A stretch of 64,000 bases of DNA from Catajapyx aquilonaris (Eukaryota). The stretch is from NCBI GenBank assembly GCA_000934665.2, contig KZ538008.1, positions 1 to 64,000 on the forward strand, given 5' to 3'. A program made the position numbers and the translations under genes. This document shows positions 30,552-58,209 of the stretch, one piece after another (the first letter of the stretch is position 1; each line of letters starts with the position of its first letter). The notes beneath the pieces are model-generated. The model did not search any database and was not told the origin of the DNA. It worked only from the letters and a program-made list of their open reading frames with translations.

Positions 30552-30576
30552 CCATACCTGTACATAAAACGAATTG
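30552..30576 (-). other. Candidate recursive splice site, junction 30558/30557 (ttcgttttatgtacag|gtatgg)
   Basis: Juxtaposed 3' and 5' splice motifs on the dlg1 sense strand; moderate pyrimidine tract and donor. Confidence 0.3.
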
Positions 30577-32699
30577 GCTGATACTATAGCGCGAAAAACA
30601 ATTCGCGAGCCATAGCCGAATGTGCAAATTAGTCGGCATGGCCAGAACGTCGGGGTCATTTGCATATTCGGTGGTGGCAACTCCGACTGGATGGGGAAAT
30701 CAGCGCGTGTAGTGTGCTGACTGCACTGTACACATATAGCCAGCGCTTTCCCCTGCTACACGCATGACGGCCGTGTAATTTTATTAACAATGGACACACA
30801 TCGGGTTGTCGGGTGTATAATGCGAATATACGTCCGCTGTCCGTTCCCCGAATATACACACACCGCTCCCGATACTGAAAGCAATGTTCAGTGCATATGA
30901 GACATTACTCATGCATTATCAATCCCGAGTTCATTTAACTGGCATCCCTTTTCTTGTTGTCCGCGGTTCAAATGATCATCCGCTGACTTTTGTCCCAGGC
31001 GGCTCGTTTTTCTCTAATCAGTCGCCTTTTTCACTCCGCTCGTGGGTAACGCGATTTGTCAACACCTTTTATCTCTTTTGAGAACCCCCCCTCTTGCTGT
31101 CTGACATGGATGAACGCCGCTCAAGCACGGGGGGGCCAAAAAACTCGCAAATTTTACGCACAACCAGCCCGGCAACACTGCTCTGGGGATATCGAACCGA
31201 ACTGGGTTCAAGTGCATCCCTGCATCTACACCAGTCGAAACCCAAAGTTGCCCCGTATTTTCTCCCAAAATTCTGTGTTTACAACCCGGCAGCACATAAC
31301 CTTAAAAAAAAAATAGTAACCGGACTTTTAATTCCGTGAATAGCCAGGTCACCAAGATTGCACCAGTTTCGCACCCAGAAAAAAAATTAATAACTTTACC
31401 CAAATTACACGGTGCGGACTAGTTTACTGCACGCATAGGGAGTGCTGTAATCCAAAACTGCATATTCTGCAGGCGGAGTAACAATCCGTAACCGCGTTTT
31501 CATGATGATGAATAGGGCATTAAAAGTGGCGCCCCAGAACAAAAAAAAGAGAAGGTTCCAATTACTGTCTGCAAGAGAGGAAGTAAAGGTAAAAAGCGAG
31601 AGAAGCGACGTTAACACGACGGCTTTTCCGGCTCGCTTTAATTCTTACTTCATACATTACAGTTATTGCGAGGGTATCATTGCGGGAGTAACTGTGGGCC
31701 CAAAGGAGCTTAATATCCCATAACATTGTACGAGCCCACGGAAGAGAACCACGGGGGGTTTTCCTCTTCTCTTTTTTTGGGAGGGGGGGAGGGGGGTAGA
31801 TGGGAAGGGTCTCTCTCATTTGCGCCACCCTCTGGACCATTGGTTCTACCTCGGCGAGAGGGCAAAATGAAACCCATTCTTCCTGGGCAAGAACTCCCAA
31901 ATAGCTCCAGGCTTTGCTCCCTCGGTATGTCGTTTTCTTGGCTGTGGCAAGCAAGACCAACCCCCGTCCCCGTTTTTCCAGCTTGTTCTTGGTCCTATTT
32001 CTTCGCTGCCGCTGTGTTGTATCCAAAGTGCTCCGTAAAGTTGTTTCCCTATCGAGCCGGTGCTTTAAAAGGTTGTGGCGGATGCAATTTCGACAAATTT
32101 CGACAAATTTACGACTGCACCGTTTTCGTTGGATTCGACCCAAGGTGATGGTCATGGCCTAAAGTTTGGACTGGTGCAATTCAATTGCAGGTTCTGCTGA
32201 AATTGGATGCTGGCAGGCACAGCTACTGAAGATGCAAGGTGTTGATATCAAATTCAACAAGCATCACGTTTATCTGCATGATTCTGAAATCTAAATAGAG
32301 ACTAAAACAAAGCTGCTGTATTAGGCAGCATATATGGCATCGTACAAAGGGTATCGAGGCAGTGAGCGACCACCCATTATATCCAAGTTTTCAATGAGCA
32401 TTGTACTACTGTACAACAACAAGTGCCACAAGCTACCAGCATTGTACTACGGAGAACTATTACCACAGAAATACTTGTGTAACAATGAAATAACGTATAG
32501 TACAATTTTTTTATTACACTTCCAATGTTATCACGGTTATCATAAGCATGGGCCAATTTAATTCTCCACCCTCAACTTTTCTCCTCACACACTACTAATC
32601 CGCCCTGTCATTACAATAATTACACCTCCTAATTCCACCAACCCGATTCCCCACGATGTTGCAAACCACCCCAACAAGCAATTCACCACACAGAATAAT

Positions 32700-33000
32700 A
32701 ATTCATCTCTGCAAGGAACATTCCTAGATTGCGCAAGTGGGCTCTCTCCCAAAACCAGAGGAAATGACGCCCTACCATGCCTGCTTGGCTCTGCATGTGG
32801 ACCTCGTTAGTTAGCAATCCCCGATGGCAACCCAAGTACACAAGAGGACGTCCTCCTCCTCTAGGCAATTCCGATCCGGATAGACAGCGGGTCCCATCGC
32901 AGAAAATTCGCCACATTATCGATCCCCATGCGGGAGGGGTCAGAGGAGCGTTTTGCACACAAATGAAGTTAATTCGGTGGCAGAGTTCCGGTTATACATG
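32700..33000 (-). mobile_element. Possible LINE RNase H relic
   Basis: IFCDG...LVYLGCHRGLLTNEV (cf. LxWxPGHxGxxGNE); weak, by eye. Confidence 0.25.
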
Positions 33001-36000: not shown

Positions 36001-39000
36001 CGTTAAATCCAGCCAATAGCTATGGGCTTTGCGGGGGATAAGAAATACAAGTTTGCTTCCAATGAATGTTTCCGGTTAAATCTTGTGCCAAACGCAACCA
36101 ACCCTCATTAGGAATAATAGGCATGAATCTGGCCGAAAAGACTGTCATTAATTACCCGAGTTAAAAAAAAAAAACCGTGGCGCCCAATCGGCGTGCACTT
36201 GAAAGCTTTTGATGGAAGACTTGCGCTTTAAAAAGAATCATAATGTAGGTGTGTTATTTCCAGCAAATTCTTATACTCCCCTGCTCTTCAGTCATTGTCA
36301 GCTTTTAGCCCAGAAACAAAAGTTATCTCTGCTGAGCTCCCACCCCCCACCCTCCACAAAGTTCCTAGGGTATAAGGAAGAAAAATGCGCCTAAGTGCAA
36401 AAACTTTCTGCAGAAATCCAAAACAGTTTCGCAGCGTCGGTAAAAATCCCAACCTCCTAACACGATTCTGCTTTTTATTTTGTGTGTGGAAAGATGAAGA
36501 ACTGCTACCATCGTTTCATCATCCCTGCAAGTGAGGTACACACTATGACAGAACAACAGCCACACCATTGAGTTGAATAGTAAGCTTAAAATATAGGCCA
36601 CATCTGTGCAAGTCGAGGACCGGCCAAGCCTGTGCAGCCCCCCCCCCCCCNNCCCCCCCCCCCATCGCGGACCACTGTGACATTTCCCGCATCCACAAGA
36701 TGGAGTTAGATTGCAGTTGGCAGTTTTCCCTACAGATGGCGTTGGAACCTGGAGGGAGGTGTGCAGGCTTGTAGTCAGTCGTAATGTAGCCGGATACGAT
36801 GCTATTATGTTGCTGGTTATTGGACCTCGAGTGACTGCGAAGTACCTGGCTGAAAGGCAGGCCAATTTTGCTCATGCTACCTCTAATATGACCTGTGTAA
36901 CTTAGGGACGGGCCATTTTATTCCCCGCCAGGCTTTTTTTTATATATCCTCCCTCTCAGTATTACAAAGGGAATTAATCATTCCAAGTTTGTTCCTGGGG
37001 CGTCGTCTGGAATCAATAAAGAAGCGCCACCCCAGGTCCTGCAGGGGTCGATTTCGCCGAGATTTTCCTCCCAATACCTGCTATTTTTCAGAGCAAGATG
37101 GAGAGCGCTGGACGGAGGCGGAAGCTCGACAACAAAAACTCGAAAAGGTATTGGTGGCGGCGCAGACATCAAAGGGTAAAATGCGATGCTATCCACTTTT
37201 CAGTGACGTCGCTTTCCCTGCAGCTATACATTCCTGACAAAGACCGGTCCTCTTCTTACAACCAATCGATCCCATCCACATCTTCTCTCTTTCGAGTCCA
37301 ACTTGCAAGAAATTGAATCCTTCACATTTTTTGGGGGGTCCCTGTCAATTTCAAATCGTGGGAGGGGAAAAAATAGTGGGTACATGCGGTGATTCAGGAG
37401 AGACATCAACTTGACACTGTTACAGCCTGTTCCGCCGGACGGTTGAAAATGGGCGCAAGTTTCACAACTCCTTTTTTTTTTTTGCAAAAAAAATTATTGA
37501 GCCGTGTATAAAAGCCCTGGAGTTGTTCCAGCGGGTTCAACTTTTTGCTCCCGGAAACAATGTCTTACGGCCAGAGTGCTGTGGAGCAGGTTGTTGTGGA
37601 TGATGAGGTTTTAGCTCCCCCCGATCCTGCCCTCAGCAGTGCGGTGGCCTATCATACTAGCTACGAACTGTAGCTTAACAAAATACTGGCCACTATACTA
37701 ATTTTCATAATTGGTTTCTCACATTACAATGTATTCATCGCTAAATGCATTCATTAGAAATATTAACGCAGAATTGTATTAATAATAAGCAGATTTACAA
37801 AATCAGCTTATGAATTGTTGACTACACGTGATTGGCAGCTTACCACATGTTGCATGTTTAGTATACAATTCAAAACACGATTAATTTTTGGGGGGTACAG
37901 AGTAGAGCAAGTATAGGTTCAGTCCAACGACCCCGTTTCACACCCAATTAATATGCAGGACTACCCCCTCGACATGATGCAATCGACAATTATTTTTTTT
38001 ACCAAGACCCAAAATTTTGCATAATTAGATTCGGCCCTGAATGCCCCTCCTGGACCAATATCTTTCTCGTTGTTTGGCTTTTGAATTTTTCAAATTATGC
38101 TTCATGCAAGTCACCGATTCACTGTATCTAGTTAACCTCTGTTTGTGCTCTTGATTGCTAATGGTAGGCTTCGAATGTTTGCACAATAAGTGCGCAATTA
38201 CAATTTGTACCAGAGCCATTATGATTATAATCAGGGTCGGGCCGCGTGTAATTGTTCTATAGATTATTCATGCAACTCGGTAGACCGCATGTGTGTCCCC
38301 CTGAACCCTGCCTTTTTTTTCACCATCAGGCTTTACACCCACCAGAAAGATTGGAGCAGTCGCAATCAAATCACACGGCCAACCGCACAAATGGCACCCA
38401 TCTTTCCTCCCGTTAAAAATCGGCCATTTTCACACCCCCCATCTCTCACAAACTTCCATGTCGCCCTCCGCATTAAATCGGTCCCAATATTTAGAACCCC
38501 ATTCATATTTTATTAACGAAGTAATTCAATTCGCTGATTGCCCCCGCGGATTCAGGAAAAGGAGTTCCCCCCCAGCCTATCTACCGAGGAAGCGACATCA
38601 AAGGCCAATAGAATTAGGCTGCGAACACGGCGCCAGGTTCACATATCGGCCTGGAATATCTTGCTCTAGCCTCCACCCACACACTGCTGCTAGAGGGGGG
38701 TCATTTTCCATTCCATGCAAAATGGCAAAACGTCTGGAAACGCCATGGCAGCCACAGACTCTAATTGTGCCTACTTATTCAATTTTGGAACCGGGGCTGA
38801 GGGAGGTGGAAGGGTAAGGGTGGGTGGTGTTCCTTGAATGCGTCTCTAAATGAAATCGGGCAAGGCGACGGGAGCAGCTTCTTGCGTCCTGAATGGAGGC
38901 CGCGGGGTCATTTGTACAAATTCCAGCAAAGCGTGGAGATGGAGGAGGAGGAATCTTTTGTTCCATTCGCTCCCACTGCCGGGCGCCAAACTTGCCCTGG

Positions 39001-40806
39001 AGGTGCCTGCCACTTGGCACACTAGCGGATAATTATCTCAAGGATAATTATCCCCATGGGAAGCAGCCAAGGTACACTCCTGCCCAAGAAATGAACTACG
39101 CTACAATATTATGCAACACACGTATGTATATCCGTTATTAGCCCTGTTATGTCAGGCCGTCACGCTAATACCACCCTGATAAGAATTTGATGCGCATTAC
39201 CTGACCGCCGGAGTGGTGTTTTAGCATAAATCCATGTAATGCTGCCAATCCATACAAGGATGTATTGTACCCTGCAGCACGCACAGTGCTACAGTGCTGT
39301 TAAAACCAACGTAAAGCAGATGCTATCTTGACGAGGTGGCACCACGCACTTTGCGGTTTGCAGATTAACAATGAGGCAACATCTAATTACATCTGCCCGT
39401 TTGTGACCCATACGTGACAGTACAGTACGCCCCATAGCATATACAAACTTTACACAAATGACGCAACCTCCTAATTAACGAACGGCCGACAGTTGTTCGT
39501 TACCTCTAAAAAAATCCTCCAGGGTATCAATAAATCCCTCTTTAAGAATACCCCCAACCAGCTGCGTCCTACCTCATTATCCGGTTTTATACACCAGAAA
39601 AATGAGGCTCCCGGAAGTACAGCCAGGTACAAAATGTGGCACCGGAAGGTTCCACCTGGCTCTCCCCCCCTCTAGCTACACGCCTCAAATGAGTCCGGAT
39701 CCCCGGACAAATGGGATGCGGGGCAGGTGCGCGCATGAAACTCCAGGAGCCTTCTGAGATGGTCGCCAATGTTCCGCCTGCTTGCCTCCTTATGGGCTCC
39801 GGAATGTGCGCCCCGGATACAAGGGCCGAACTCTTAATGGCCGAATCATCCTTAATATACTGTGTACCTGCCGCCATCAAACGGGGCCGTGACGCCAGAG
39901 CCAAATCCGAATGAAATTCCGCCTAAATTTTTTAAAAAGCGTAGCTGAAAATTCAAATGGGGGTTACGCCAAATTAACGGTCGTGTCCCCCAGGCAGTGT
40001 CCCAAATTACGGGGGGCCTCCCCGGATTTTCCCTTAATGTGGCGTACATTTGCTAATTTTTTAGTCAATTGTGAGGGGGTTGCGGTTGATGCGAGAAAAA
40101 TGACCTGATGAGGATATACCGACACTAAGCATGGCTCTATTAACTTTCGGGCGCCTTTTTTCTTGGGATCGTTATGGTGGCGGTGGGCAGGGGGACGGAG
40201 GGGGGGGGGGGACGGAGGGAGGAAATTCCCCAGAATTAACTGAGCATTAATCAACGTCACCAAAGCTAATCCCCCTGGCTTCATAGTTGAGCTCGTTGCG
40301 CACGATCCCTGTTCAACTCCGGCTGCTCATCTTGAAATTAACCGTGCACCAATCTAATGCCTATTATATGGAATGATCAAAATGTATACCAACAACAAAG
40401 TATTTGATTACACATTACACCATTTTGTCAATAATTTCGCCAATTTCAAATCAATACACGAACAGAATCTTCCCACGATAAATTTTCACGCGGTAACAAC
40501 CTGTGAAAATGACAGTTGGACTAAAAATTGGAGGGATGATATTTGCCCCGGCTTATTTCAATCTGCAGTTAAAATCCGGACACTTTCGCCCCGTCGATCC
40601 TAATTTCCTAAAAGTACTTAAAAAAAAAAATGTCCCACCTCGATCCGGGGGACGAAGTTTCTACGGAGAATCGGCTGTCGCTACTTTATCTTTTCCCGCT
40701 AAAATCCAAGAGATCAATTCGGTTCCCATCCGCTACTCTGGGCAAAAGTTAAATGAACCTTTCGGTATGGAGGGGAGAGCCTGGTAATGGAAAATTCCCC
40801 CAAAGC

Positions 40807-40830
40807 TCTTACCTGAAATGCAAAAAAATT
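40807..40830 (-). other. Candidate recursive splice site, junction 40813/40812 (aatttttttgcatttcag|gtaaga)
   Basis: Strong T-rich tract with TTTCAG directly followed by GTAAGA on the dlg1 sense strand. Confidence 0.5.
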
Positions 40831-43800
40831 GGGATTCGGTCGAGTTGCGTGACAACTGCCGGTGTAACAACCGTGCAAGACCAATCCTGTTCTGTTCCGA
40901 GGCAAAAATAATCGATTTGCTACGCAAGTTTCAAATTTTCGTGGGTTAGGAAACGCAATTCCTTGTGGCGGAATAAAATATTCTCGGTGCATCAACTCGG
41001 CCGCAACTGTGGTTCGGTCTCGAGCGGCCCTTACTGTAGACCGTGGGTTTTTTACGATTACAGTTACTCTGGTCAATAAACGTGGTCAGGTACGGCCCCA
41101 GCTACACGGGCTTGAATAAGTTACATTGTTACAGTAACTGAATCACCTAATTTTGTTCTGTCATTTGCTAGTGCCGGTTCCTCTGAGACGTATAGCACAA
41201 CAGAGCTACAATACACAGTGTATGTTAATAATATCCTTATGAAGAAATAATTTCCTAACATCGCTGACCAGACCTTAATATTTTAAGGCCATGCCCTTGA
41301 GTGATAGTTTATCCTGACTCTCAAGGGCTAAACATCAGCCACCTCTGCACGCCAGGATGCCTGACACCCAGGGGCTCAACTCCGTACATTTCAACTTATG
41401 AAAACAAGACAATGCAGTTGTTTGTCATGTTTCACGCGATCAATATTGCGTACTGTACTACACCTGCAACAAGCCTGACAGATATTTGCGGCGACCCCCA
41501 ATTCAAAATGCCGGCACCTCCCATCCAATCCTCCAAATTGAAATGTACATTTGAGTTGAACCATCCACCCCCAACAATTCGCAGATGACTAATTAGAACA
41601 AAGTTGGGGCCCTACCCAAACCCACCGGAAGAGCCGAAGTTAAGCAATAACTATAATCCTCGACATCCGACATGAATTCCGGCATTTGAGGTCCCCGCCG
41701 TTGTAACTCCCCAACAAGCTGTAACAAAACATGGCAGCTCCCAATCATCCAAGTCCACATTCAAACTACTGCTCGTTAATTAAACTTTCATTGCAAACCA
41801 CTAATTACCACCCGATGAATGTCAGTCACTCGTTTTGTTGTGTTTAACGCCATTATACACCCGATCTGGACCCAACGCCCACACCGATAAGTAAAAAATG
41901 CAGATAATGTTTGGCATTATCTGCATGAAAAATATCCAGCTGTCGGCAAAAACGCAACCACCCATTTCCCCCGGGAGCGCAAAAATCCAGCATTCACCGC
42001 CAACCGTTTATGCATAAGTTTTCATACATTGCCCACGTCCATCCGCATCATCGGAAAAATCACGTCCCTCACAAACCTTGCATTATTCCTCATAAGTGCT
42101 ATTTTTTAAAAATTTATCCTCCAACCCGGATTATTTCCCACCCCTGCCTGCGTTGATTTTGGCATAGCCAACAAAATACTGGCCAGCCCCCGCCATGCTT
42201 GACGTGCATTTCGCCGGCTTAACATCTCTTTTGTTTCCTGCTCTTGTGGCCTGACAGGCCCCATCCGCATGCCGGGATCATGGCCGGTGTGTGCGTTTTT
42301 ACTTGCCGTCAGAATCGAGGGGGCCTCGGCGCAAGATAAGCGTTGCGGAACTGGGTATGAGAAAAAGTGTCAAAACTCCGTAAATTGCAAGGGCCAGTCT
42401 ATGGCACACACCAGTTAAATCACAGATCATTACTATATCTAAAAAATTTAAGGCCAAGAAACGCTGGACGTATCTGAAATATTCAGTGAAGTCTCATGCA
42501 AATTAAATATTGAGGTTTGACGTACCTATATTAATAATAGGCTGAATAATTTGGCACTAATCAGCTGACACACGAATAGACACCCCTACTAAAATATTGT
42601 GCAGCCCCCACCTATTTCTGCCTAGACATAGTAGGCATCGACAAAAAAATATACCAGACATATGACATTTTCCCGGACACTGGGCATAAAAAATTTACTG
42701 TCCCTGCTGACACAGAAAATTCGCTATTGTAATTGTTCCGAATGATAACGACCATTTTGCACGGCTCGTTTTCGGTTTTTTGACAATGTGTTGCTTACTA
42801 TTATCGGAGTATTCATTTCCATTCCGAATGCACGTCACCATTTCAAAAACACAACCTAGACAGTTATTATATTATCTGATGAAAAAGCACATTCACAATT
42901 TGCTGAATAGAGGAGGCTGGGGAAATATTCGAGCCTGCACAGACCCGAACAATAATGAAAAGCATGTTTCGTTCGTTTACAAATTCTTTCCTGGGAATTG
43001 CTGTTTGCTTATTACGTTAGTTTTTTTTTTTTGTATCCAAGGGCCCCTTTTTATTAATTAATGGGAGACTTTACGAGTGCTCTGTGCAAACGTTTCCAAT
43101 TACCTCCCTTCTCTCCTGCCTGCGAGGCAAAATGCCTTTCCCGCAGGAAAGAAATTAAAATCACTCCGGAGAATTCTTTAGAGGACTTGAGCGATCGTTG
43201 CGGGTAAACTTCTTATGAATGAGAAGAAGTTGGGACCTTTGAGAGGATCATCACAAGTACAAATTACTATCTGCAGCATTTCTTTGACCTCGCATTCCTT
43301 TCGGAGAACACGCAACGATCTAACTACGGAGATGATTCTCTCCTAGTAACCAATGAGAGCTCTCGTTCAAATGTAATTGGCTTCATCACTACGTAAGCAA
43401 TACATATTGCTCATAATTTAAGGCTGGTCTACATTTCCTCATGCATGATTATTTGCTCCACAATTTTTCTAATTTCCCTGTTATTTTTTTGTGTCAATAA
43501 TTGACAGTATTCACATTCAATTACAGTCATTTTTGAGTTCTTGTGCGTCACTATTTACAGTAAGTTACAAAATGTGAATTATTTACCACGTTAAACAGTG
43601 CATTCGATTGGTCTTGTTTAACTGAAACCATAATTATATCGCCGTAGGATTTTTTTGGGTATCCTAGGTATTTTTGGTAATTACAATATAATAATTGCAA
43701 TTTAAATTAATCACCCTATTTGCTAACATGTTTCTGCTTTTAATTAATTTGTATTTTTGTTGCCATTGATTAATTGTTATCAGTTTGATGTTTGCATTTG

Positions 43801-44099
43801 ATTTGCACAGCTAACTTTTAACGCAAAATTTCAGTGTGCATCAATTGATCAACATATCAAAGCAATTTCATAATAATATCGTATTACAATACATATATGC
43901 ATAAATTTGAGCATGTATAACTGCTTCTTGCATTATTACAATAGTGTAAAACCCTTTGTTAGTCTAATTGCAATCATGAAAGTTTCATTATTACTGTGAA
44001 GCCAGGAGAGGACGCCTGGACTACCCAAATTAGAAAGTAAAACCAGCCTAAAGACTCCCACGTGAACCTAACCTGACTGGACACATCCTGCCATTACAT

Positions 44100-47050
44100 G
44101 CCGGGTTCAAAACTTTCACCGGTCCTCCTGAGACCTCGGAGGACCCAGGCGGGTGGCATCGACCAATCCAGAATAATAAGCAGCACTTCTAGCAGCCAGA
44201 TTTTTCAGGTGAACACTACGGGAAGCGCAGAGGGGGTTGCGTGAGCCCCAGAATAAAGCGCATCCCCAAGTGAGGATGGGCAAATGGCATGCAGGAGAGA
44301 GAGAGCTAGAGAGAGCAGGCGATGGCATTTCCTGGTCGGAATCGTAACCAGCAGCAGGGCCGGCACTAAGGCAAGTTGAGAGTCGTTGTTATTCGCGGTA
44401 TTTCACAGGCACGCCCGTCGTTTGCACACGGCAAGTCCTGATGATTTCAACGTTTGCATGGAGAGTGGTCGTTGCTTCGGGGGACGGCTGGAATATGGGA
44501 CCCCCTCACCTCTAGCTTGCCAGAAACGCTCTCTCCCAATCCCTCGGAGCACCTCTTTTAATGCCGCCCTAAGCGGCCCACCTACCCAATTATAATTCTC
44601 TCCATTCTCGATTCCGACACAACGCGCCCGGTAATGAAGTCGGCGATGCAATTGTCAGCGTCTCAGCTCGTCGTTCTCTCCTCCAATGCAACCGGGGCCT
44701 TCGGATCGATCAGTTGGAGGCCACGCGATGTGGCATTCGCAACATGTTTCGCCAATCGATTCGATCTTGTAATTTTGTCACGGAACGTGCAAGCAAGGAG
44801 GTGTCATGCAAACATCCCCCCATCCCCCACTCCCCCAATTTCACAGGAGATCGTGCTCGAATAGCATAATGACACGGATCGTGACCATATGATACGGGGG
44901 CGACTATCCACTTCAATTCCATCGCCCCCCAACCTTTCAGTTGTGCGGATCATTTCGAATGGTTACCAGTGTCATCGCATCTGTATCACCTCCAGAGAGC
45001 CTGATTCAAACCAGCGTTGTGTGGATTCCTGGCCAATCCCATTTAGGGCGTGCAATTTACCGCGTTGAGAGTGGCAGACAAACTGACTATGGTCAAATGT
45101 CACGGCAATGCCCCGCAAGAGTAAGTAATTTGGTTGCGCGCTGCTGTGTGAATGCAATTAGCTTGATTTGGAAGGCATTACCGCGCCAACATGCTCAACT
45201 ATGACCCCTTCCACAGGTTTGTAATCATGGCGCGTGCAGGGCCTTGCAGTGCTGAGCCGCGTCTCGAAATTCGAGAGGGGACAGTCTTCGCGACAATCAA
45301 TCACCCTCTTGAGTGCTGCTAATTCATCTCGACCAAACTTTTTCGCAGGGCTGGAAAAGCCCCTGGCCGGCCATTCGCTGCGACAACATTTGAAAACCAA
45401 TCAGGGATCAGGTTCTATCTCTCCCAGGACGGCCATGCAGCACAAATAGGTTCGCGCCTGGACGCCCAGTTTGGCAATCACTGCGAGCAAACCTACAGGG
45501 CAAACACCAAACACCGTGCTCCCTTCTGACTTTTTCCACAATGCCTTAACCCAACAACAATGAGCCGGTAACGAGGCTTCTCATTGCTAGGAAAAGCCTG
45601 CTGATACTGGCAGTGTTGTTACACACCCGACGGTGCAAATGACACCCTTGGTGGGTATTACGTAGCCTGTACGCGCAAGCCCGATTGCCTGGCAACAATT
45701 GGGCGCTTGTGCTGGCCACACAATTCTTCATGCACTGACACTCCATGGTTCCTTACTCACTTCGATATCTCTTGCCAGACATCTTGGCGTGCGGAACCTC
45801 TGAAGCCTCACCACTGCATCTTAAGTATCTACTTGGGATCCCCGCCCAACAATCCACTTTTCAAGTCCCGCTGATGGGCACCGTCAGCAAACCCGAATTC
45901 CGGAAAGGCCTCATTTCATCCCCCATGTCCATTTAATGCGATAATGGCAAATATCACATAATAGCGCATGCACGTGTAACGGACCAATAACCCTGAAGCA
46001 ATAACTGCAAAATTCAGCAACTCCTGAATATTTTACCATCCCCTTTTCCAGCTCAAGAGTCCAGCCCGAAGGCCTCCTTTCCCCGCCCAATCGACAACAA
46101 ATAGCATTAGCATGGGGGAAATTCAGAGAGCTGCAGTAAAGGAGGGTTCCCCCAATCGCAGCCGGAGGCAACGTCTAACTAAGCGCCCAGAATTTCCTGA
46201 CGAGGCCTTCCGCCCAACGAAAAAAAATAAAAAATCCCCAAGACCGTCATTACCAGTGTGTTGCCAGCCCCCCAAAAATTGGCAAGGCAGCATCTGTTTT
46301 TCTATGCAAAACATTGTGAGTATATGTTGTGACAGTGCACTCTACGGGATTAAGCCGTCCGGTCCAAGCGTGTAAACATGCATCAAGCCATTTTTTTTTG
46401 TTCCCAGGGACGGCAGGTAAGCAGTGTCGGGTGCATATTCATGAAGGCGCCCTCCGGAATGGACGTGCAAGCCCGGACAGCCGATGCCAAAGCGCATCCC
46501 TGGCAAGAAAGCTTGTGATTCCGGCTGGCACCCTGTCCTTGCAATTAGTCCCGCCCCTTGTCTGCGAGAAAGCGTCACGTCGGCAGGCCCGTCAGAAGAG
46601 ATGTGGGGATGTCCTACTCCGGGGTTTCCTTTTCCCTTGCTGGTAAGAACGGAGGAAGCGACTTGGTGCGAGAGAGAGAGAGATGAAAGCCGCTCTGCGT
46701 CTCTTCTGGAATAACGAGTTCCATCTCTTGCATTATGCAAACTCGTCTGGCGTAAAATGGCCTTGTCGGGGCAAGGCTTGGGGGAATTGGGATCGTGTTT
46801 GGAGCTGCCGCCCACGGGGAGGTTCCTAGGCGGCGGCCAAGAAGCGCACCCACTCCTCAATCTCATTCCTCACTTCAGGCTTGGGTGCCCAACCTCGTCG
46901 GTGGTCATTGCTCTGGGACCGCGACACTGCTCCACGACCGCAGGTGGAGGGCAGCATCCGCCTTATCTCCGATAAGAACCTTGACACATACATTGTGCCA
47001 GTTCATATTTTCCGCCTTGCCGCCGTCCGATTCTATTAAGAGGCGCACTG
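44100..47050 (-). mobile_element. Decayed, internally deleted LINE (gag zinc-knuckle-like remnant near 46850-47030; RNase H/C-terminal remnants 44100-44990)
   Basis: NVCVKVLIGDKADA/CPPPAVVEQC (cf. CxxCxxxGHxADxCP..C..C), a GNERAD-like remnant near 44660, ILTWGC (cf. HILWEC), and terminal AARSAAYYSGLVD. No RT YADD motif found. Confidence 0.35.
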
Positions 47051-48299
47051 CAGATTGGGCCTCCGGCTCGGCAGTGTACCCAAGACGAAGTGAAATTGGA
47101 AAATCAGAAAATCCTTCCTTTCCACATGGATTCCCTTTTGCCAATTAGAGACTGCGAATAACATTAAATGTGCCTTACCTCTCGCCTTTCCTGTTTAATA
47201 TTACAACTGCTCAGCCTTTGGCTCAAAAGGTACTTGGGAGAACTTTGCTGCAACGGATGGCTGCATTACCATGAATAGAATCTCCACAGTGTCATTAGAT
47301 TAAACGGCAGTGAAGCTCACCGAAGGGGACACTCCCGTCCTTAATTCGATTCGAATTGATAGGAATAAGAATTCGGTCGTATATGTCAGCTGTGACTGCA
47401 AGTCTGGTTGCGCATCCCTCCCTACCCGGGCATACCCCAAAAACCCCATAGGCCCGGGCCACCCTCCATAAAATCAGCATCGCGCGTCCCGCAGGATCCA
47501 GCTGGTGGAGCAAGATGCATGGGCCTCTCGCGATTCAATTAGGCCTGTGCAGGCTTTGTTGACTTGGGCAAATGACGCAATGAATCACAGGGGCCCAGCA
47601 CGAGGTGAGCCGCCAATTGAATTCTGCAGACTGGTCCCTGCCTCTGCTTTTTGGTGCATATATGCTCACAGGAAGGCGGCCTCCTACCCGGGTTCCCAGA
47701 GGTGTTGGCCAATTTTTGCTCGGGAGAACCCTAGGCAATGCGCCGCTCAAACTTCAAGCTTCCTCAGTTACATATATAAAACACACCTATAGGTAATTCC
47801 AGCATCGTGTAAAGAGAATCAGTAATGCACCTCCTGGCCTGTGGGAATACAAACAAAATTACGTCCCTAAAATATGACTTTCTTTTTTGTCCGTGTCGCT
47901 TGTTCCAGCCCCCGATGCGTGTCTTTCCCCATTTCCCTTCCTACACCAGTGTCTTTGCAGCCCTCGGGAGAGCAGCCAATAGCCCTTGCGCCTGGGATAA
48001 CGAGGGGTAATTTCCACTTCAGGATTGCCTTGATATTTGGGAATCGCAAGCAAAATTACGGACGAAACTGCAGCGCCGGGAGATAACCGGAGTCACCGCC
48101 GGAATTTTTATGCAACACAACATCGGTCACGCAGACGCCTCTTTTTCTCCTCCAAAAAGTTCTCAAGATGGATCTCCATCTAGCTTGCCGACGTCCCGGG
48201 CTCCTCGTCTACATCCGGGCCTCAAGTAGAACAAAGGAAAATGTCTCGTCTTTCTAAGGCTCTGCTGTCAGGAGTCTACAAATAGTCCTTTTCAACTCA

Positions 48300-49990
48300 C
48301 AACTTTTACTCGGGGGCTCTTATTGAGCAAGAAAACTTAATTAAAGGAGAGGTATGTCGGAGTCAGTCTCGAGGTTTTGCTCCGTTTACAACCCCCTCGG
48401 ATAATTCGGGAGTAATTTATCATGTAACGACAATGACAGGCTTTTGCTTCGAGTTTTGCACTTGATCATTAGCCGCTCTGTCGCATCGATTGTTTGCCTT
48501 AAAACTTGGTTCAAACCGCAGAATGGCTCGAGATAGTTGCATAAAATAACTAGTCATCCGAACCACGGCTTTGTGAGTTCTCCCAGTACTTCTATCAGGG
48601 TTGGAAAGACTTGTGGATAATTTGATACGGTCTTACCCACGCTCAGGACAAGGATGGCCACTGCGATGAAGTGCACTTACCTACAAAAGAAGAAAATAGT
48701 CATTAGCAAATTGCACACAAGTTCTGACATAATACCAACTGCATGCAATAGTAACACATAGTATCGCACTCCTGCATGAAATCGATAAGCTTTTCCTCAG
48801 CCACTGCTCCTCAGATGTGGTGAGGCATGCAGCGAACTAACCCAGCCCGGAACACCATTGAACTTAACCTCTGTTTGCACAAGACTCCCTGAGCAACGAG
48901 CAAAAACAAGAGCAGCCGTTATTTGAAAACGCAGTTAAGAACATTTTCCGGGTTATTTGGCGGCAGTCAACTGCACCGCCAAGTAAGCACTGGGAAATGT
49001 TGATGAAGTGATGGCTTCCCCCTCTTACAATTCTCCGAGTGACAACGGCCAGTTGATCCCCTGAGAGTGGTGGGTGGGGGGTATGGGCAAGAAGGCTCTT
49101 GATGATGATTCCCATCTGAGGGGGGGGGGGGGTGGGGGGCATCAGCGCTTCCTGCAGATGGTCCCGAGTGGGGGCCGAACGAAAAGCGTCGATATTTCAG
49201 GGCATTTCGGCCAGACAAGGTGGGCGTCGGCAGGGACGGATTTTTTCCCAAGTGTCTCGTCCCTTGTTTGACAAATCCACTTAAATGCACGGGGAGGAGA
49301 GACCGGACGGAGATAAATTCCGGACCATTCGTCTGACCAGCACATGTCGGTACGAATCACCCTTGCCGCCGCCCATGCCATTTGTTTCAGCCCCCTACTG
49401 TTTGCATTGCGGATGGATTTCCACAAATGGGTAACCCATAAATATCGATACATATCGATTTTGTACGCTCTGGTTCCTTACAAGATATCAGGGTCAGATT
49501 TCAGACTCATCCATCACTTGGCACTGATGGAAGGCCAGTTTAGCCCCTCCTGTCCATCATGTTCCACTCAGGAAGACATCTGCCTGAGGCTCCGACGCTT
49601 TCAGGCACCGCAATCCTGCTTAGGTAAATGTGTGCAGGCGGATCGCATGACTTCACTAAAACCGGGGAATCAATTACGGGACATCCAGGCCTGCCAGCGC
49701 GCAAGAGACTTAAAAGAAAAGCGAAGTGCAAAGTCTCTTGAGGAAATCGCCAGGGAAACAAATCGCCCGAGTTTGACTTGATTCTCCGGCCTTGCCATTA
49801 CACGTCAGGCAGCGATCTATCGCCCTGAATAGATAGAAGGAAGACAAGCCCTGCTCGTTTCTTCTGAAGGGGAAATTAAACTTTCCGTCCTTCTCTCTGA
49901 TGCCTGTATAACTTCCCCCTCTGGCAAGAGACATGGAAAAAAAGGTCGGCTTGAGAAACGAATGACACGTGTCGCGAGACAACGCAGTTC
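48300..49990 (-). mobile_element. Decayed P-element/THAP9-type DNA transposon
   Basis: Ordered remnants: THAP-like GSYTGIREKDGKFNFP...RAIDR...AICF, VMDESEI (cf. first catalytic DE), VIRTDM (cf. VTSDM), SADAPH (DxxH motif), YLEPFCGLNQ (cf. YLLTxRLNQD). Confidence 0.45.
48637..48708 (-). other. Candidate recursive splice site (junction 48681/48680) with 44-nt cryptic RS-exon 48680-48637
   Basis: gctaat (branch point-like) gactattttcttcttttgtag|gtaagt, and a second donor tgg|gtaaga 44 nt downstream. Confidence 0.55.
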
Positions 49991-51649
49991 AATACATTGC
50001 AAATCGAACCCGCTGAAATCGCAACCCCCAGATGCAAATGCTTCCAATTCGTTCTCCACCAGCCACTCAGAGTTCACACCGCAAAACCCTCCAAGCCTAA
50101 ATCCTACCCTGCACATTTTCCAGGTCCAGGATTTGATGGTGGAATCCTCCTAATGCATTATTCTGTGCTCTCGCCTGTACAGGCACCATCCACGACCAAA
50201 GAACCCAGAAAAAAGCGCCACTTTGTCAGCCTTGGTTGCCACTTGCTCAAATCCCAAAGATCTGCGCTGGAGGATCAAAATGGAGTGTACTTTTCGAGCG
50301 AATGACGCAGTCAAAGCCTAGGCACCGCCAGTTCAGTGATTATTCTCATTACTTGCTTTTTCTTTTTTCCTACCCGCCACGTCTTCAGTGCCGGAGGGTT
50401 GTTTGTTATCAGCTCGTATTTTAACTTTTCTCATAAATCCTTGCTCGGGAGAGAGGTCGGAGCGAAACGAGCGGTCCTGCGAGACGCCTCAACTCGGATT
50501 AACTTGCTTTTAATCCCTTCGTCCTACTCGCACGCAGCACACTTGAACACTCCGCCGCACATGGAAGAAGTGCTTTACTGCTAAAAATGTACAGGGTGCT
50601 CCAAAATGCCCGGGTAAGGCTGAGCTATAGACGCCAACTCCACTTGGGTGCCTATAGCAACCAATGCACCAGGTACACTCTGGACCTGTAAATGATCCTA
50701 AAGAACGTTCCTTTAATTCCAGCCCATCCTGTGCATAAATCCAGGCCCAGCACACCCAATTGCCCCCGCATTATGAAAACCAATTTGGATTACAGTTGCC
50801 GGAGAGCAATACTGTATCCCCATTTGCAAAAGCCTAACGTGGTAATTCAGGCATGCAATGATGCAATAATAGCGTGTATTACTAGCGAATGCAATCAAGC
50901 CGTCTCTCAAAGGGCCAGCCCTTCTTCCGGCAGGCCATTATATTACGAGTCCCCAAGCCGCACGATATTGAAGGAGAACAGAGGGCCTACCAATTTCGAT
51001 CTCCTGATCTTGCTTCCACAGAGATGGAGAGAGAATTTACAACAAAAAAGTAGGGGAACCCGCATGCACATTGCTTCGATTAATTCTTTTCGGATATCCG
51101 ATATACGATGCCCAAGACGGAGAAGAAGAGGTGGAAATAGCCGCCCCAATAAATATATCCGACTCGAGCAAATGGCCTGAGAGGACATAAAATGTACGGG
51201 CCCGGTTTTTGTCTCGCGTATATCAGGCAAAAAAAGAGCGCGCAATAACATACAAAAGGCTGTCGACAATAAAATTCCATTATATAAACAGGCAGTTTTC
51301 ATATTTTCATACAGGCTTAAAACCGTTGTAAATAAATTTCCCACCCCTTTTGTAGAAAAAACAATGTTGCAGTAGTTCGAGCTAATCGCATAGGAAACTG
51401 CAGTATTAATGCACAGATAGTCGCCAACCATTTACATTGCAGACAAAGGGTAACAAAAAAAAAAAGTTTGTTTTCGCATTTAAAGCCAAACACAACCCCA
51501 TCCCTCCACATATTTTGTTGATATGCCCCTGCTGTTGTTTCCGCAGTCATGTTTTATTTGTTCTACTCCCTATTTGCAAAGTTATACTGGTGTACCGCCA
51601 TTAATTTTCGCTCGAACGTGTAAGCCCCCGTACACAGCACGCCAACATA

Positions 51650-54450
51650 ATAATGCTCTAATCCGTCCGCCATAATGAACCTATAGGAAAAAAAGTCCCC
51701 CGCCCCCTCCCCCTAAAAAAAACTGACAACACCCTCGTAATTCCACTAGAACTTTCCCCACGTAAACTTTCCTCCTCCTTGCAACCGCACCACTCTCGCC
51801 TAAGACTAATACACCCACAAAGTTTCGTACACCGTCCACAAAATTTAATCCCCCGCCGGACTATACCCTTTCCCCCTAGAAAATTCCGACGGGGCTTGTA
51901 TTTTGCGAGCAACACACCTGTTTTTACCTCCCCTGCATTCCCTCCGGTAACACCCTGGCTGAAAAATATAGTATACAGAAAAAAAAAGCAATTCTTGGCT
52001 CTGGCGCTCCGTGGACTAATCAAATGGGGTCCAAGCTTGACACATCGGGCGCGAAGGCCTCTGGGAGCACTTGACGAAGGCCACAATGGCCGCCCCAATG
52101 ACGTCATTTGGGCCTCACTCGTAATGGCAGTGGCGCTGCCTGCGAGCTCAGAATGGACGCGCAGAAACGTGCTCCGGGACGCCATACACACAAGGGAAAT
52201 TCCGCCGCTGACAAATTCCTTCCCACTTGAAAAATAACGTAGACAAGGTATTCTCAGGCGCATACGCCCAAGGTGACGCTTGGGATGCCTGATGCACAAC
52301 AATGTTGTTCCTACTGCTAAAGCCACGACGAATTAAATTAATCTGAATTTACCATAAGTAATGGTGTCAAACAACAATTGACAATTCAGCTGGACCACCA
52401 AGCTGTGGCACTGCTTTCATCCCTAAAAGGGTCTATAAAGTGCATCTGTGGCGCTCTAGAACGGCGCTTCCCAGAATCGTCGCCTCTTTTTGGATCCATG
52501 CCCTGACGCAACACCTTGGAGCAATGTACTTGATCTGGAAACATTCTGTATAACGAACGATAATGTGTCGCCGCACAAGTTTTCACATTGTGCAATCTGG
52601 ATTTACAATCATGGCTGAGAGATTTAAAATACGAGCTGGTAAGGCCTGATTTCCAGAGGAAATGGGCGCGGAAAGGAACTTCCCGAATCTTTCTTCCTCT
52701 GAAACGACTCTGGAGGAAACGGTTTCAGAGTTTCTCCTCACGATTCAGCCCCCCCGAACCCCACCGATTTCCTTCCCCTAACACACGCCCCCCTCGAATA
52801 AGCTCACTTCAAGCCCCATAATCTATTTTTATCTGAAATGAATAGTCTGCCGAGTAGTATAAACTTTTATAACTCTCTCCCGGACCCTCTCCAGGAAGAA
52901 AAAAAGGGGGGAGAATCCGGAACTAGAAACTTTCCTCTCTTCACAAATGCGCTGTTCCCACTTGAATATTTCCGTCTCTTAAAAACGGGCCAAACATGAG
53001 CTAAGAGACGTTTAGAAAACGTCTCCAGCAGTGACAAGTTACGGCGAAAGCGAACCACTCCAGACTCTAACGCTGCATAGAACCTCTGCCAAAAACTGCA
53101 GATATCCTGATATGTGAAAGCTTTTGAGCAAAAGAGCACTGAGATATTCATGAAAATTCAACAGAATCAATATCTCCGTTTCCATAGCGGTGCAATTGTG
53201 TGAAGGATGTGAAGCCACACATGAACGATCCATGTGTCGGATAAAACTGAAGGCAGAAAACAATTTCATTTATTTATTGGAAAATTCTTCTCTCCACTTC
53301 AATTATGGCTCTTGCATATATTCCACATATACAGTAGCAATATTCTCCATCACACTGAACTTTGCCAATAGTTTTCCGCACACACGCCCTTATCAGGCTA
53401 AGGCAAATAGTTTGCCAGCCCTGAGTGGCGATATTTCTCCCAGAATAATAGGAATGATTTCTATTCCTAGGACGGATCGCTATTTGACCACAAGTGAGAC
53501 GAAGGCAGCGACGAATATTACTTGGCCCCCAGTCAGGCCCAAGATAAATACGGCGAGGTTTTGGGGGGATTTCCGGCGCAGGCGATGATGGCCCCCGTGT
53601 CGCATGGGCGGGCCTTGTACCTGGACTGGGGCCAAGAAAAATGCCTGGAAGGGTCTCGCCTCGGCTCAAGAATCGTCTTCCAATAGGAGAAAAGCCTCAA
53701 GAGCACTGCCAAGCTCCCGGATCTGTGTATTTGATACTCAATCTGGATTTATATTGCTCGACGGTTTCGTCCGTCGCAGTTCCAGACTCCTTTTTTGCCA
53801 ATTCAATAGAGCAAATTCTCCCCCTGGAAAGGCTCAGGCAAACTTTCCGCTACATGCTGGCTTCACAGGGTAAGAGAATATTTCTCGATCGTCCCCAAAT
53901 GTCATTTGGAATGTTCCGAGTCGACAAAAACTATACCCGCCGCCATTTCGCATGCACTCTCGATATACTGCTTCACCTGAAATTTCGAACGATCAGCATA
54001 ACAACTGAGTTTGACGTTCTACGATTGAATTTACCCTGTATAGGAAACATTACTCTACGGGCCTGATTACTCTAGCTGTCAAATCCCTTGAGGCATACTT
54101 GACAGCTAGAGCATTACGCCTAACTCAATTTAGACCCCAAGTGACTGACCATTCCGCAATTCAGATCTTCAAACGATTTCATTCGCGACAAATGACAACC
54201 TATTTTTATACCGGCACAAAAAAACACACCCATACAACGTTATGACATGACCAGCTTGACAATGGCACATAAACTGTTCAAATCATGCTTCAGGTAATTT
54301 TTCCCAAGTGGCGTGTAAAAATATCCGCCCAAAGCACGCGACGGCAAATCAAACCATTCACCCTCACACAGCCAGAAACCCAACAACGTCCAGCACACCA
54401 CATCGAACGCGACAGCTTATGACGCTTCGCATTCACAAAAAGCGTCTGCC
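51650..54450 (-). mobile_element. Second decayed P-element/THAP9-type transposon
   Basis: RCWVSGC (THAP start-like), NILLPCEAS (cf. LxLPSxxTL), LIRACVRK (cf. HLIKCVRN), MNISV (cf. KMNVxxA), WCGCKEE (C-terminal GCxxH-like) in the expected order. Confidence 0.35.
54070..54111. repeat. Perfect 13-bp inverted repeat with 16-nt spacer (ctctagctgtcaa / ttgacagctagag)
   Basis: Seen directly; arms 54070-54082 and 54099-54111. Confidence 0.9.
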
Positions 54451-56399
54451 AAGCACGATTTTTCCGCCACACCGCTCCGGATAAAAATCCAACGCTTGAA
54501 ATATCTGAATGTTTCCGGAATAAAGGCCATCTACATCTGTTTGTCTGCAGTCTGCCCCACTACATTTGCCTGCGACGCTCTCCTTTCTCCTGCACCTTCT
54601 AACTACAACTCATCCTCTTTTTTTTTCAAGGGTTGGCCCGAGGGTTGACTTGAAAAAGTTTGGCACCCGCTAGGCGCAGTCAGCACGATCTGTCAACCCG
54701 GCTCCGTTTGCGAGGCGGTTACCGCTTAATAAAGAGTTGCGGAGATGATTTGCGACAGGCATTTTTTGGCGCAATGACCGGTTTCCACTGCGTTGTTCCC
54801 CGCGACATATTTCCTCATTCCGCCAATAATCCTTGCCAGTAGACGGCCACAAGCAGCTGTAATGATCACAGTAAAACTCGTCCATCAAGCGTTAATGCTG
54901 ATTGCCGGATCTTTCACCCGAAATGGACTCTTCAGCCTCCCCTGGCATTTGCAGAAGTAGATGTGAGGGTAGAAATGGGGGCCCGCTTATCCATCCTCTT
55001 CATGCAATGCTTGCCAACCACTTGCGGCGAAGGAACGCCTAAATCCATCATTACCGGCCCGCTGAGCTTATCGGTCCATAAAAACCGCGTTACTGACCTC
55101 ATCTACATATATGCCCCCCCAATCGTTAGGTGACACGCCTTTGTGGCATGTAAAAAGTTTACTGGCGATGTAAACCAGCACCGCGTATGTACGAGTCGCA
55201 TTTTTCCGTGCGGAAATCAAAACCAGGCATTAACGCAACAAGTGAATCCATATTAGGGCCGTGCATTATTCAGGCCTCCCCCTGGAAAAAAAAATAATCA
55301 TATACACCGATTTTGCGCAGTGTGCAAAAATCACGATCAATATTTGCATTCCCAAAATGCCCAGTGATATGCGGACCCCCAAAAAATCCAGTCCCAACCC
55401 GCCTTAATATTAGGAGTCAGGGCGTCAGGCAACAAGCTACACAATGCAACTTCTGTACACAAACCCAATTTGGGAAATGGGTCTCATGCGCCGGAAGTTC
55501 CCCGCGACTAAGTAAGATGCAACGTCAACATGGTAATAGGTAGCTTAATGCGCGTAGAAACTTTTAAGGATGTCCCTAGTTGCCTTTGCAGCCGTATATA
55601 GACCTGACCCGCTGAAATATTAGAATCTCGGCTTGTTCATGCAACAGGAGACGAAAAACTGCACAATAAAGTTATATGATTGCAATTTTGTACACAAAAT
55701 TGGCAAACAACTGGTGTCAACACAAAATCAATGGGCACTCGCTAATCCTGTCAGCCCAACCACTAATCCACAAAAATACGGATCCCTTAATCCCTAGGCC
55801 GAATTAGTTGACGGGACAGGTCAACGTGAATATCGTCGCCGCAATTTTTCAGGGGTGGATGTATGCGTGGGAGGAGACAACCAATGGGGCATGCCAGTGC
55901 GGCGCTTATTGAGCGTGGAGGTAGACCCTGGCCATTAGCACAAGCCATGACACTCAATATGCACAAAATATGGGTAAACAGGCAGCAACAAACAAGAACC
56001 GGACAAAACGCGCCGAGCTGGGTCGGGGCCTAAATTAGTATCACCTCCGCATCCACATGACAGTAAACAGACATGTAAGAGTGGCTCATTTTATCCCTCC
56101 CGCCCGTTAAATGAAGATGAATTAACGCAAAGGAAGGCGGCGCGGAAATAAGAGTCAACGCGCAAGTCCCGGTCATAAATAGCTGTGATGAATTACCCCC
56201 GTCTCTATATGCACGGTTTCACTCAAGCCGGATATTCAGCTCCGACCCTCACATATACCGAGGACTCCAATTTCTTGGGATGGAATGTGAAAATATTTCC
56301 AATCTATGCAATATTTCCGCCACCAACATCGGATTGACAGTCCTGACATTTTTACACAATTGGGAAGAGGTTCTGTCACACTCTTTGCCAAAACCACGC

Positions 56400-57480
56400 A
56401 AAACTGCCTCACGGGTTTAGGTTGTTCGCCTAACTTTCGTCCACACTTTTTCCCTGCCCTCCAGCTATACCAAGCACGGGGAAATGTGTAGCGTGCAAAT
56501 GAGGCACCTGAGGAAAACGCAACGAGATTGCGTCCAGAAGCCTCTCGCTGGAAAAGCGCATTAGCTGGTGAGGAACGTGCTAATGGTACACGACAAGCTC
56601 TGCCGTACGGGGACACAACTCCGGAAGCCCCACTTTTTTACTACCACTACGAAACTACATAAGAAGCGCTATACTGCCAGGAGTAAACTGCAAGGAAGTC
56701 GGGGCTGACCTGATTCATATTATTAATAATGAATGAAAGGTCACTCGGGTTGAGCCACTGAAATACGGAGGTAGTGAGAAAAAAATATCCGGTCCTTCTC
56801 GAGGTACAACAGCAACTCTTGGGAATCATCCCAAAGCGTTGCGGCAATAAAAATCGCGGCGACATCTTCGTCCGCGAGCAAGGAGAGAGGCAATAAAATC
56901 GCTTTGGCCGGATGGAAACAGTAAAACTTACCGGGGTTTTTATTACTGCGTTTGCCGTGTGGATGACCTCGTATAAACTTGTCTCCAAGCTTTATTTCTT
57001 CCTATAAAAATTTTCCTCCGTCCGGGTTTTTCCAGAAATGAAAGAATCTTCCTCCTGGGCTTGTCCCCAGAGGCTTCCCCGACTGCATCGTTTGGCATCC
57101 TCCTCCACACTTCCATGGAAAGCATTACCAGTTTCCGATACGAAGGACTGGGAGGGTCACAACAAATTCACTTAAAAGGGCTTCCGCAACACCGAGGTAT
57201 ATAATCTGGGAATAAATTGTTCCCAGATGCTGCTCTCACGAACACTGCAGTGCCCATCAGACTCGGAACAAAACGACCCCAATGTAATGCGATACGCCAT
57301 AAATCTCCGCCTTTTCCAGTCATGAGAGAAGCATTAATGCGCTGAATTGCACTTTGCAGTTCACTGCCAACTTTGATACGAAGCGTTAAACGGTATGACA
57401 AAATGACAGCCGTCAAGAGGTTAGCAATGACGCACTTCTTGGACACCAATCGCTCTACTGCTTGTCACACTAGTAGTGAG
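56400..57480 (-). mobile_element. Decayed L1/Tx1-like retrotransposon ORF2 C-terminal fragment
   Basis: KKCVIANLLTAVILSYRLTL...AIQRINASLMTG (cf. RAxVCNxxLxxKLWYxxxxL...IQxxxxxFxWG) and LYEVIHTANAVIKT (cf. FFKLHTxTLPxK). Confidence 0.35.
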
Positions 57481-57809
57481 TGCTTAATCACATCGGACCT
57501 GTATGTTTCTATCTCTCACAACATCCGCTAGATGGAGTTGGGGCGAGCTGTGATGTTTTCCGGTAGAGGGTGCTGGGCGTTGCGATATTGCTGTGGAGCC
57601 GAGGAGATGGCTACACCATTTGTCAGAAGTCATTGTGTTGAGAGTAGCTGGATGCTGGAATAAACAATTTGTCCTCACCAGACCTTAAGTAACCCTCTGG
57701 TGCGTCATCCGCCACACACTCGAGAGAAGAAACAAACAGGTCCAATGTGATGCAGTACAAGCAGTACAAATCGGACGACAACCCATGGGTACACAGATGT
57801 TGGTCCTAC

Positions 57810-58209
57810 CTGAAGTGGATGGAACGAACCCGTGTACCTCGCAGTAAGTCCCCGGGGCTGCGGCTCCTCCCGAGCAGGGCTGCTGCTGGGTCGCCGACAC
57901 AGCACCACTGCAAGAGTCCGCTCCCGACCCCGGGCCCGACACCACCCCTGTCGCCGGGGCAGTCGTCCCTGTTCCGCCACTCCAGTAGGTCCCATATCCG
58001 GAATATCCAGCCACGGAGGGCGGGGAGGGAGGGGTGAGCAAGTGTTCCCTGGAGGCCACCACCACTGACCCGCCGCCACTTCCGCCCCCGAGGTTGACCA
58101 GGGGGACTGTGGCCACCTGGGGCTGCCCCACCAACCCCAGCCCGACCCCCAGACCCTGTCGCAGCTCCGAACGCACTCGCAGCATCCACACCATGCCGAA
58201 AAGGGCCAT
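57810..58209 (-). CDS. dlg1: Probable dlg1 alternative first coding exon (133 codons + 1 nt): MALFGMVWMLRVRSELRQGLG...GYSGYGTYW...QQQP...YCEVHGFVPSTS
   Basis: GC-rich island unlike its surroundings; tccATGG start; donor TCA G|gtagga is phase 1, so G+AT rebuilds the Asp of DIQEFY at 24929. No homology recognised and other frames are also open. Confidence 0.6.

Follow-up and report, generated by a model that had tools for sequence, protein, structure and literature searches.

A candidate recursive splice site was found deep in the long first intron of a dlg1 gene, on the minus strand of the 64,000-nt stretch of DNA that was analysed (hereafter, the window). At this position, junction 48681|48680 (site 1), a complete 3' splice site is fused to a full-consensus 5' splice site; another, weaker donor follows 44 nt downstream. 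Judged from the sequence, site 1 has about an even chance of working as an intronic ratchet point (a recursive splice site) with a cryptic RS-exon of 44 nt. Another such motif, at 40813|40812 (site 2), was found in the same intron. More tentatively, at slightly below an even chance, the long first intron of dlg1 would be removed in three steps via ratchet points at 48680 and 40812, in a non-dipteran arthropod with long introns.

Host Gene and Intron Model

The gene model was built from homology, by a protein search with an open reading frame (ORF) followed by tblastn of eleven of the matching proteins against the window. For the ORF at 24745-24954 on the minus strand, 843 proteins matched at E<=0.001 among 879 candidates, and the named ones were disks large 1 (DLG1). 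In the tblastn search, three collinear dlg1 exons were obtained on the minus strand of the window. The features of the model, in the direction of transcription, are as follows.

57810..58209, minus strand: alternative first coding exon of dlg1, with the ATG at 58209, encoding MALFGMVWMLRVRSELRQ … YCEVHGFVPSTS plus 1 nt; donor tcaG|GTAGGA, phase 1
24930..57809, minus strand: host intron, 32,880 nt, bounded by donor 57810 and acceptor 24929
24796..24929, minus strand: dlg1 exon for the second half of the L27 domain, (D)IQEFYELTLLDDSKSIQQKTAETIRIAKKWESEDPIVAAISNSE; acceptor ctgcag|AT, donor GAG|GTAAGT
5591..5815 (the 5591 end is approximate), minus strand: next dlg1 exon, KTRYRSEEELPPPPSPPILKEISALDGVPR…; acceptor ttttgcag|AAG, probable donor AAG|GTAAGG

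The alternative first coding exon matched the N-termini of beetle and bedbug isoforms by tblastn (P0007 and P0017), and one match of 18 residues was obtained with P0121. Searches for transcripts of the host species gave nothing further for this exon, and nothing for exon 3. When 57810 was joined to 24929 in silico, the product read …HGFVPSTSDIQEFYELTLLDD, with a spacing equal to that of …HGFVSPDEDIQEFYELTLLDE in P0007; the resulting junction, …HGFVPSTS|DIQEFY, resembles that of a fly isoform, and its spacing is identical to that of P0007. The L27 exon and the isoform-specific N-terminus are therefore collinear on one strand with agreeing splice phases, as dlg1 exons should be. The sequence-only reading that preceded this analysis had placed the motif deep in a long dlg1 intron on the minus strand, downstream of the donor at 57810, and this placement was borne out by tblastn and by the exon model, in which site 1 lies 9,129 nt into the host intron.

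Weak tblastn matches at 44.5 kb (E 0.3-0.8) were considered as the canonical first L27 exon; the ORF concerned had no Pfam match, and they were treated as chance matches. Judging by the sequence, the canonical first L27 exon is outside the window, which means that the intron of the L27-first isoform would be longer still, with the host intron described here forming a part of it.

Anatomy of Site 1

On the minus strand, which is the sense strand of dlg1, the sequence around site 1 reads ...tttgCTAATgactattttcttcttttgtAG|GTAAGTgcacttcatcgcagtggccatccttgtccTGAgcgtgg|GTAAGAccg. Its elements, from upstream to downstream, are listed below.

48702..48706, minus strand: branch-point-like box CTAAT, a candidate read from the sequence, with its second A (48703) at -23 from the acceptor
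48681..48696, minus strand: acceptor half of site 1, a 12-nt pyrimidine run (48696-48685) followed by G, T and AG (48682-48681)
48675..48680, minus strand: donor half of site 1, GTAAGT, whose ligation to the upstream exon (…TCAG) would give CAG|GTAAGT
48637..48680, minus strand: putative cryptic RS-exon of 44 nt; in the frame that a phase-1 upstream donor sets, it has a TGA at 48645-48643
48631..48636, minus strand: second donor TGG|GTAAGA with GT at 48636, a 5/6 match to GTAAGT, the presumed exon-definition partner and competing donor

The pyrimidine run occupies positions -16 to -5, with TT at -5/-6, and pyrimidines make up 15 of the 18 positions from -22 to -5. With T at -3 and G at -4, the junction itself reads TAG|GTAAGT. 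Against the consensus MAG|GTRAGT, a manual count gave 9/9 for CAG|GTAAGT, the donor that ligation would produce, and 6/9 for TGG|GTAAGA. Among the sequence features of ratchet points for which site 1 was tested, the juxtaposition of AG and GT, the TT with its pyrimidine tract, the size of the intron and an RS-exon followed by a weaker donor were all present.

When the 44 nt were placed in silico behind the phase-1 donor at 57810, the translation was ...STSGKCTSSQWPSLS followed by a stop codon, so that inclusion of this piece introduces a premature stop, as in a poison exon. The fused 3'/5' splice site, the second donor 44 nt downstream and the premature stop behind a phase-1 donor had each been claimed by the sequence-only reading. 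All three were recovered here: the motif and its coordinates proved correct on the minus strand, the GT was found at 48636, and the TGA at 48645-48643 is in frame.

The 44 nt were also considered as part of a coding first exon, and this possibility was rejected. A TAA immediately upstream closes the frame compatible with exon 2, VHFIAVAILVLSV (hydrophobic), and reading from each of the three upstream ATGs ends in a stop.

Proposed Course of Splicing

In the proposed mechanism, the strong acceptor of site 1 would first be recognised together with the donor GTAAGA at 48636, by exon definition, and the upstream exon would be joined to 48680 with removal of 9.1 kb. This ligation would create CAG|GTAAGT, a full-consensus donor expected to outcompete TGG|GTAAGA, and as a result the 44 nt would leave with the next segment of the intron. 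That segment would probably end at 40813|40812, 7.9 kb further on, where CAG|GTAAGA would be regenerated, and splicing to the L27 exon at 24929 would then take out the final 15.9 kb. Should the second step use the weaker donor at 48636, the 44 nt would be kept, and the resulting frameshift and TGA should cause nonsense-mediated decay (NMD).

Stepwise removal of this intron had already been suggested by the sequence-only reading. The suggestion gains from the fly-like anatomy of site 1 and from the presence of a second motif on the same strand; recursive splicing as such keeps the standing of a prediction. A look-up of sequencing runs for 48400-58399 listed no RNA run; this stretch is mostly intron, and exon-only RNA runs may have fallen below the threshold of one-twentieth.

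A Second Motif in the Same Intron

All AGGT positions of the window, 225 on the sense strand and 167 on the antisense strand, were ranked by simple splice-site features. The second motif that resembles a recursive site is given below.

40807..40832, minus strand: site 2, cccaatttttttgcatttcAG|GTAAGA, with its junction at 40813|40812, TTTCAG|GTAAGA

Site 2 shares the intron and the strand of site 1, and it has TT at -5/-6 and 14 pyrimidines among the 18 positions examined. Within ~190 nt downstream, no donor with a consensus match of at least 5/6 was found, so an RS-exon of the type predicted at site 1 is not evident there. Together, sites 1 and 2 would split the host intron into segments of 9,129, 7,868 and 15,883 nt. 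Local alignment of the flanks of the two sites gave a score of 16, compared with a mean of 13.2 and a maximum of 24 for shuffled sequences; the two sites are thus alike only in the motif and are not copies of one repeat.

Chance Occurrence and Enrichment

The alternative that survives best is that one or both motifs arose by chance, as a pyrimidine run before AGGTAAGT in a long unconstrained intron, and that the spliceosome ignores them or uses them as noise. This was considered rather unlikely. On the two strands of the window together, one copy of the motif YYYYNYAGGTAAGT was found where 0.08 were expected, and at least one copy appeared in 8 of 100 shuffled windows. The longer form with TT at -5/-6, YYYYNNNYTTNYAGGTRAG, likewise occurs once, against 0.03 expected, with at least one copy in 3 of 100 shuffles. 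Bare AGGTAAGT shows no enrichment, with 3 copies where 1.69 would be expected. The added details weigh little, since a GTRAG 20-100 nt downstream has a probability of ~0.11 on the sense strand and an insert of 44 nt will shift the frame regardless of what it contains; the second donor and the stop codon therefore contribute little against chance.

A metagenome scan for the 22-nt core of the motif also bears on this question. The core was present in four contigs (31-36% GC, three of them mutually related), none of which resembled the window outside the word itself, and such words consequently do arise by chance. Moreover, the window had been selected by a reader who was seeking motifs of this type. 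The core motif is rare, yet possible by chance in one window, and many chance copies must exist across a large genome.

A filter based on the fly literature (YAG|GTRAG, TT at -5/-6 and 14 or more pyrimidines among the 18 positions from -22 to -5) returned two sites on the sense strand, 48680 and 40812, and no site on the antisense strand. In Markov simulations of the sense strand, 400 for each of orders 1, 3 and 5, the mean number of sites was 0.010, 0.015 and 0.010, respectively, and two sites never occurred. By a context-times-word estimate, 0.019 sites are expected on the strand and 0.009 in the intron. Two strong sense-strand sites in a single intron thus stand against an expectation of 0.009-0.02, with the reservation that the p-values are optimistic, the filter having been written after site 1 had been seen. 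Site 2 had been picked by nobody beforehand, and for this reason it was taken as real support.

At each pyrimidine threshold from 10 to 14, sites 1 and 2 were the only matches on the sense strand. At the loosest setting (at least 10/18 pyrimidines, without the TT requirement), the antisense strand also gave two sites, as many as the sense strand, which is in keeping with chance; at no other setting did it give any. The pattern TTNYAGGTRAG had three matches, all of them on the sense strand, compared with 0.54 expected on both strands, and three were reached in 2 of 100 shuffles. This strand bias argues against chance, as does the full set of fly ratchet-point features carried by site 1.

Possible Poison Cassette Exon or Inserted Element

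A second alternative is that 48680-48637 is an ordinary cryptic or regulated poison cassette exon, which would lower dlg1 output via NMD and would undergo no re-splicing at its 5' end. Its parts would serve such a function: the acceptor is strong, the donor TGG|GTAAGA is usable, and the 44 nt carry a premature TGA. However, an RS-exon is defined by just this feature, a full-consensus donor at its first base, and such a donor should beat the weaker one downstream. Site 2, at 40812, lacks a donor downstream and would also be left unexplained by a cassette exon. This alternative was therefore regarded as improbable, well behind a chance origin of the motifs.

The searches for foreign elements around the two sites gave uniformly negative results. 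On the minus strand at 45.5-64 kb, 115 ORFs of 45 aa or more had no credible match in Pfam, which gave just two sub-threshold chance matches, above 62 kb; on both strands at 38-53.5 kb, 98 ORFs of 55 aa or more had no Pfam match at all. No Rfam match was found in the window, and nothing relevant emerged from the comparison of 46-52 kb with the window or from the repeat search of 44-54 kb. The sequence-only reading had spoken of a surrounding transposon family, of which neither Pfam, nor Rfam, nor the repeat searches within the window revealed any sign. That the motif is an exon-intron boundary or a terminus of a transposon, nested gene or pseudogene fragment inserted in the intron is accordingly very improbable: non-coding repeats would escape protein scans, but there is no protein-domain match on either strand around both sites, no Rfam family and no repeat inside the window, sites 1 and 2 are unrelated in sequence, and upstream of the 44 nt every one of the three frames is closed, hence no coding first exon.

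Affinity of the Coding Exons

The sequence-only reading had attributed the DNA to a tick or another chelicerate and, on that basis, had suggested a first case in ticks. The coding exons speak against this. The L27 exon carries ELTLLDD and TIRIA, as in insect sequences, whereas the proteins of three ticks (Ixodes persulcatus, I. scapularis and Haemaphysalis longicornis) and of a centipede have EITLLDD and TLQIA(C/S)KWE. Over the whole L27 exon, the best matches reached 34/45, and beetle and other insect isoforms with 32-33/45 were among the top 23 matches; the ticks reached 31-32/43, with tick-specific differences.

Residues of insect dlg1 were also found in the KTRY..LPPPPSPP..LDGVPR exon and in the MALFGMVW N-terminus. 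For exon 3, no tick was present among the best 25 of 126 proteins, and the named ones were insects. The coding exons are thus of hexapod type and differ from the three tick sequences, which leaves the attribution to ticks or chelicerates, and with it the suggested first case in ticks, unsupported. If the host nevertheless proved to be a chelicerate, the site would be the first case in that group, as far as the titles of the literature searched show.

Significance

Good maps of recursive splicing exist only for Drosophila and, in sparser form, for vertebrates. If both ratchet points in dlg1, a conserved gene for a polarity and synapse scaffold, were validated, the mechanism would be known from one more arthropod lineage, and the intron would offer a simple model with three segments and one RS-exon. 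If removal in three steps is true, it would show that recursive splicing of the fly type, with cryptic RS-exons, is general in arthropods with large genomes and is not a peculiarity of Drosophila. The dlg1 sites are put forward as a plausible, sequence-based prediction of a known mechanism.

Comparison with Known Systems

In Drosophila, ratchet points with cryptic RS-exons have reportedly been described in Ubx, kuz and Bx (Duff et al. 2014/2015; Joseph et al. 2018/2021; Pai et al. 2018). The identifier of fly dlg1 is presumably FBgn0001624. Neither this identifier nor the name 'dlg1' appears in five of the files that supplement Pai et al. 2018 (PMC6110457), and as far as these files go, there is thus no precedent for dlg1 in fly S2 cells.

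In flies, 197 ratchet points were reported in 130 introns of 11.3-132.7 kb, which they divide into segments of 2.6-63.6 kb (Duff et al., bioRxiv 006163). According to the same study, TT is present at -5/-6 in 196 of the 197 sites, the pyrimidine tract is more prominent than in ordinary introns, the branch points of the recursive lariats lie mostly at -36 to -21, and the ratchet points are strongly conserved. In the accessible text of Pai et al. 2018 (PMC6110457), a high-confidence site is given for 63% of fly introns >40 kb; in the S1 table of that paper, as far as available, CAG is the commoner form and TAG also occurs, for example in TTTTTAG|GTAAGT and TTTCTAG|GTAAGC.

The likeness to the fly sites is considerable. 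AG and GT are juxtaposed on the sense strand of a long intron, TT occupies -5/-6, the pyrimidine tract is long, and a branch-like box falls within -36 to -21 (at -23 for site 1). The intron of 32,880 nt and its segments of 9.1, 7.9 and 15.9 kb are in the fly range, and several sites per intron are possible. In the available portions of Joseph et al. 2021 (PMC8605326), intronic ratchet points are described with a short cryptic RS-exon (~50 nt) that is generally out of frame, and the ratchet-point donor as generally stronger than the donor of the RS-exon. The putative cryptic exon of dlg1 is similarly short and out of frame (44 nt, compared with ~50 nt) and is followed by a weaker donor. The agreement of site 1 with this literature upholds what the sequence-only reading had said of an AG|GT junction combined with a short cryptic exon.

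In the same portions of Joseph et al. 2021 (PMC8605326), weakening of the ratchet-point donor is reported to force inclusion and to produce loss-of-function alleles of kuz and Ubx. If the present prediction is true, a single base change in GTAAGT could knock down dlg1 through forced inclusion of the 44 nt, in the manner of these alleles. There are also differences from the fly sites. The latter are backed by junction reads, sawtooth coverage, lariats and conservation, whereas the sites described here are predicted from sequence. Site 1 has TAG in place of the commoner fly CAG, site 2 is without an evident RS-exon donor, and the host is not a fly.

RS-exons of vertebrates occur in long neuronal genes (Sibley et al. 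2015, as cited in the accessible text of Joseph et al. 2021, PMC8605326). The same source points to shared features: a cryptic exon is defined, the regenerated donor then competes with the RS-exon donor, and inclusion is harmful or leads to NMD. In contrast to the intron considered here, few fully suppressed intronic sites are described there for vertebrates, and the vertebrate host introns are usually far longer; the dlg1 site, for its part, is predicted from sequence.

Poison cassette exons resemble the 44-nt piece in that its inclusion would lead to a frameshift and a premature TGA. They differ in being a class defined by regulated inclusion, often highly conserved, for which a consensus donor at the first base is not a feature.

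For arthropods outside flies, the literature located yielded one motif-based prediction, namely a recursive site in intron 2 (230 kb) of NPF1 in the locust (Wang et al. 2022, PMC8892266, in its available text). As described there, the locust site has support from U2AF65 RNA immunoprecipitation, whereas the dlg1 site was read from the DNA letters. Both are motif-predicted recursive sites in a long intron of a non-dipteran arthropod.

Further acceptor-donor motifs in the dlg1 introns

Two additional motifs on the sense strand of dlg1 were found beside site 1, the candidate ratchet point at 48681|48680 on the minus strand:

40807-40832, minus strand: TTTTTTTGCATTTCAG|GTAAGA, another strong motif with an acceptor fused to a donor, sharing both intron and strand with site 1
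14362-14372, minus strand: third motif, TTATAG|GTAAGT, in the next dlg1 intron (24795-5816)

The second motif, which the initial note did not list, lies 7.9 kb downstream of site 1 and, in the proposed explanation for removal of this intron, would be counted alongside it. The third is located 10.4 kb from the donor of its intron, near the intron middle. Because pyrimidines occupy just 8 of the 18 upstream bases, it ranks at best as a weak candidate.

Other features of the locus

An open reading frame on the minus strand (44487-44615) showed a faint likeness to the first L27 exon in tblastn (E 0.3-0.8), and a Pfam search of it returned no match. The similarity is probably due to chance; less probably, the frame represents a decayed copy of that exon. 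In the third dlg1 exon, a (GACCGR)n run at about 5610-5650 (minus strand) codes for RDRDRDRDRD.

Runs of N were located as follows, and probably represent assembly gaps:

1052-1084: N run
20667: N
36651-36652: N run

On the plus strand, GC skew was negative in all 2-kb bins of the window (1-64000) and AT skew was positive in all but two, so that G and T are enriched along the whole minus strand. This pattern fits minus-strand transcription of the entire window, which would place the dlg1 promoter further upstream than 64000.

Alternative first coding exon

The sense strand carries GAG|GTAAGC at 60153, upstream of the alternative first coding exon (57810-58209, minus strand) by approximately 2 kb; an untranslated leader exon could use this motif as its donor. 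The middle of the coding exon is long, of low complexity and rich in Gly, Ser and Pro, without a counterpart in the insect isoforms retrieved, and both ends of the exon, MALFGMVW… and …YCEVHGF, are conserved.
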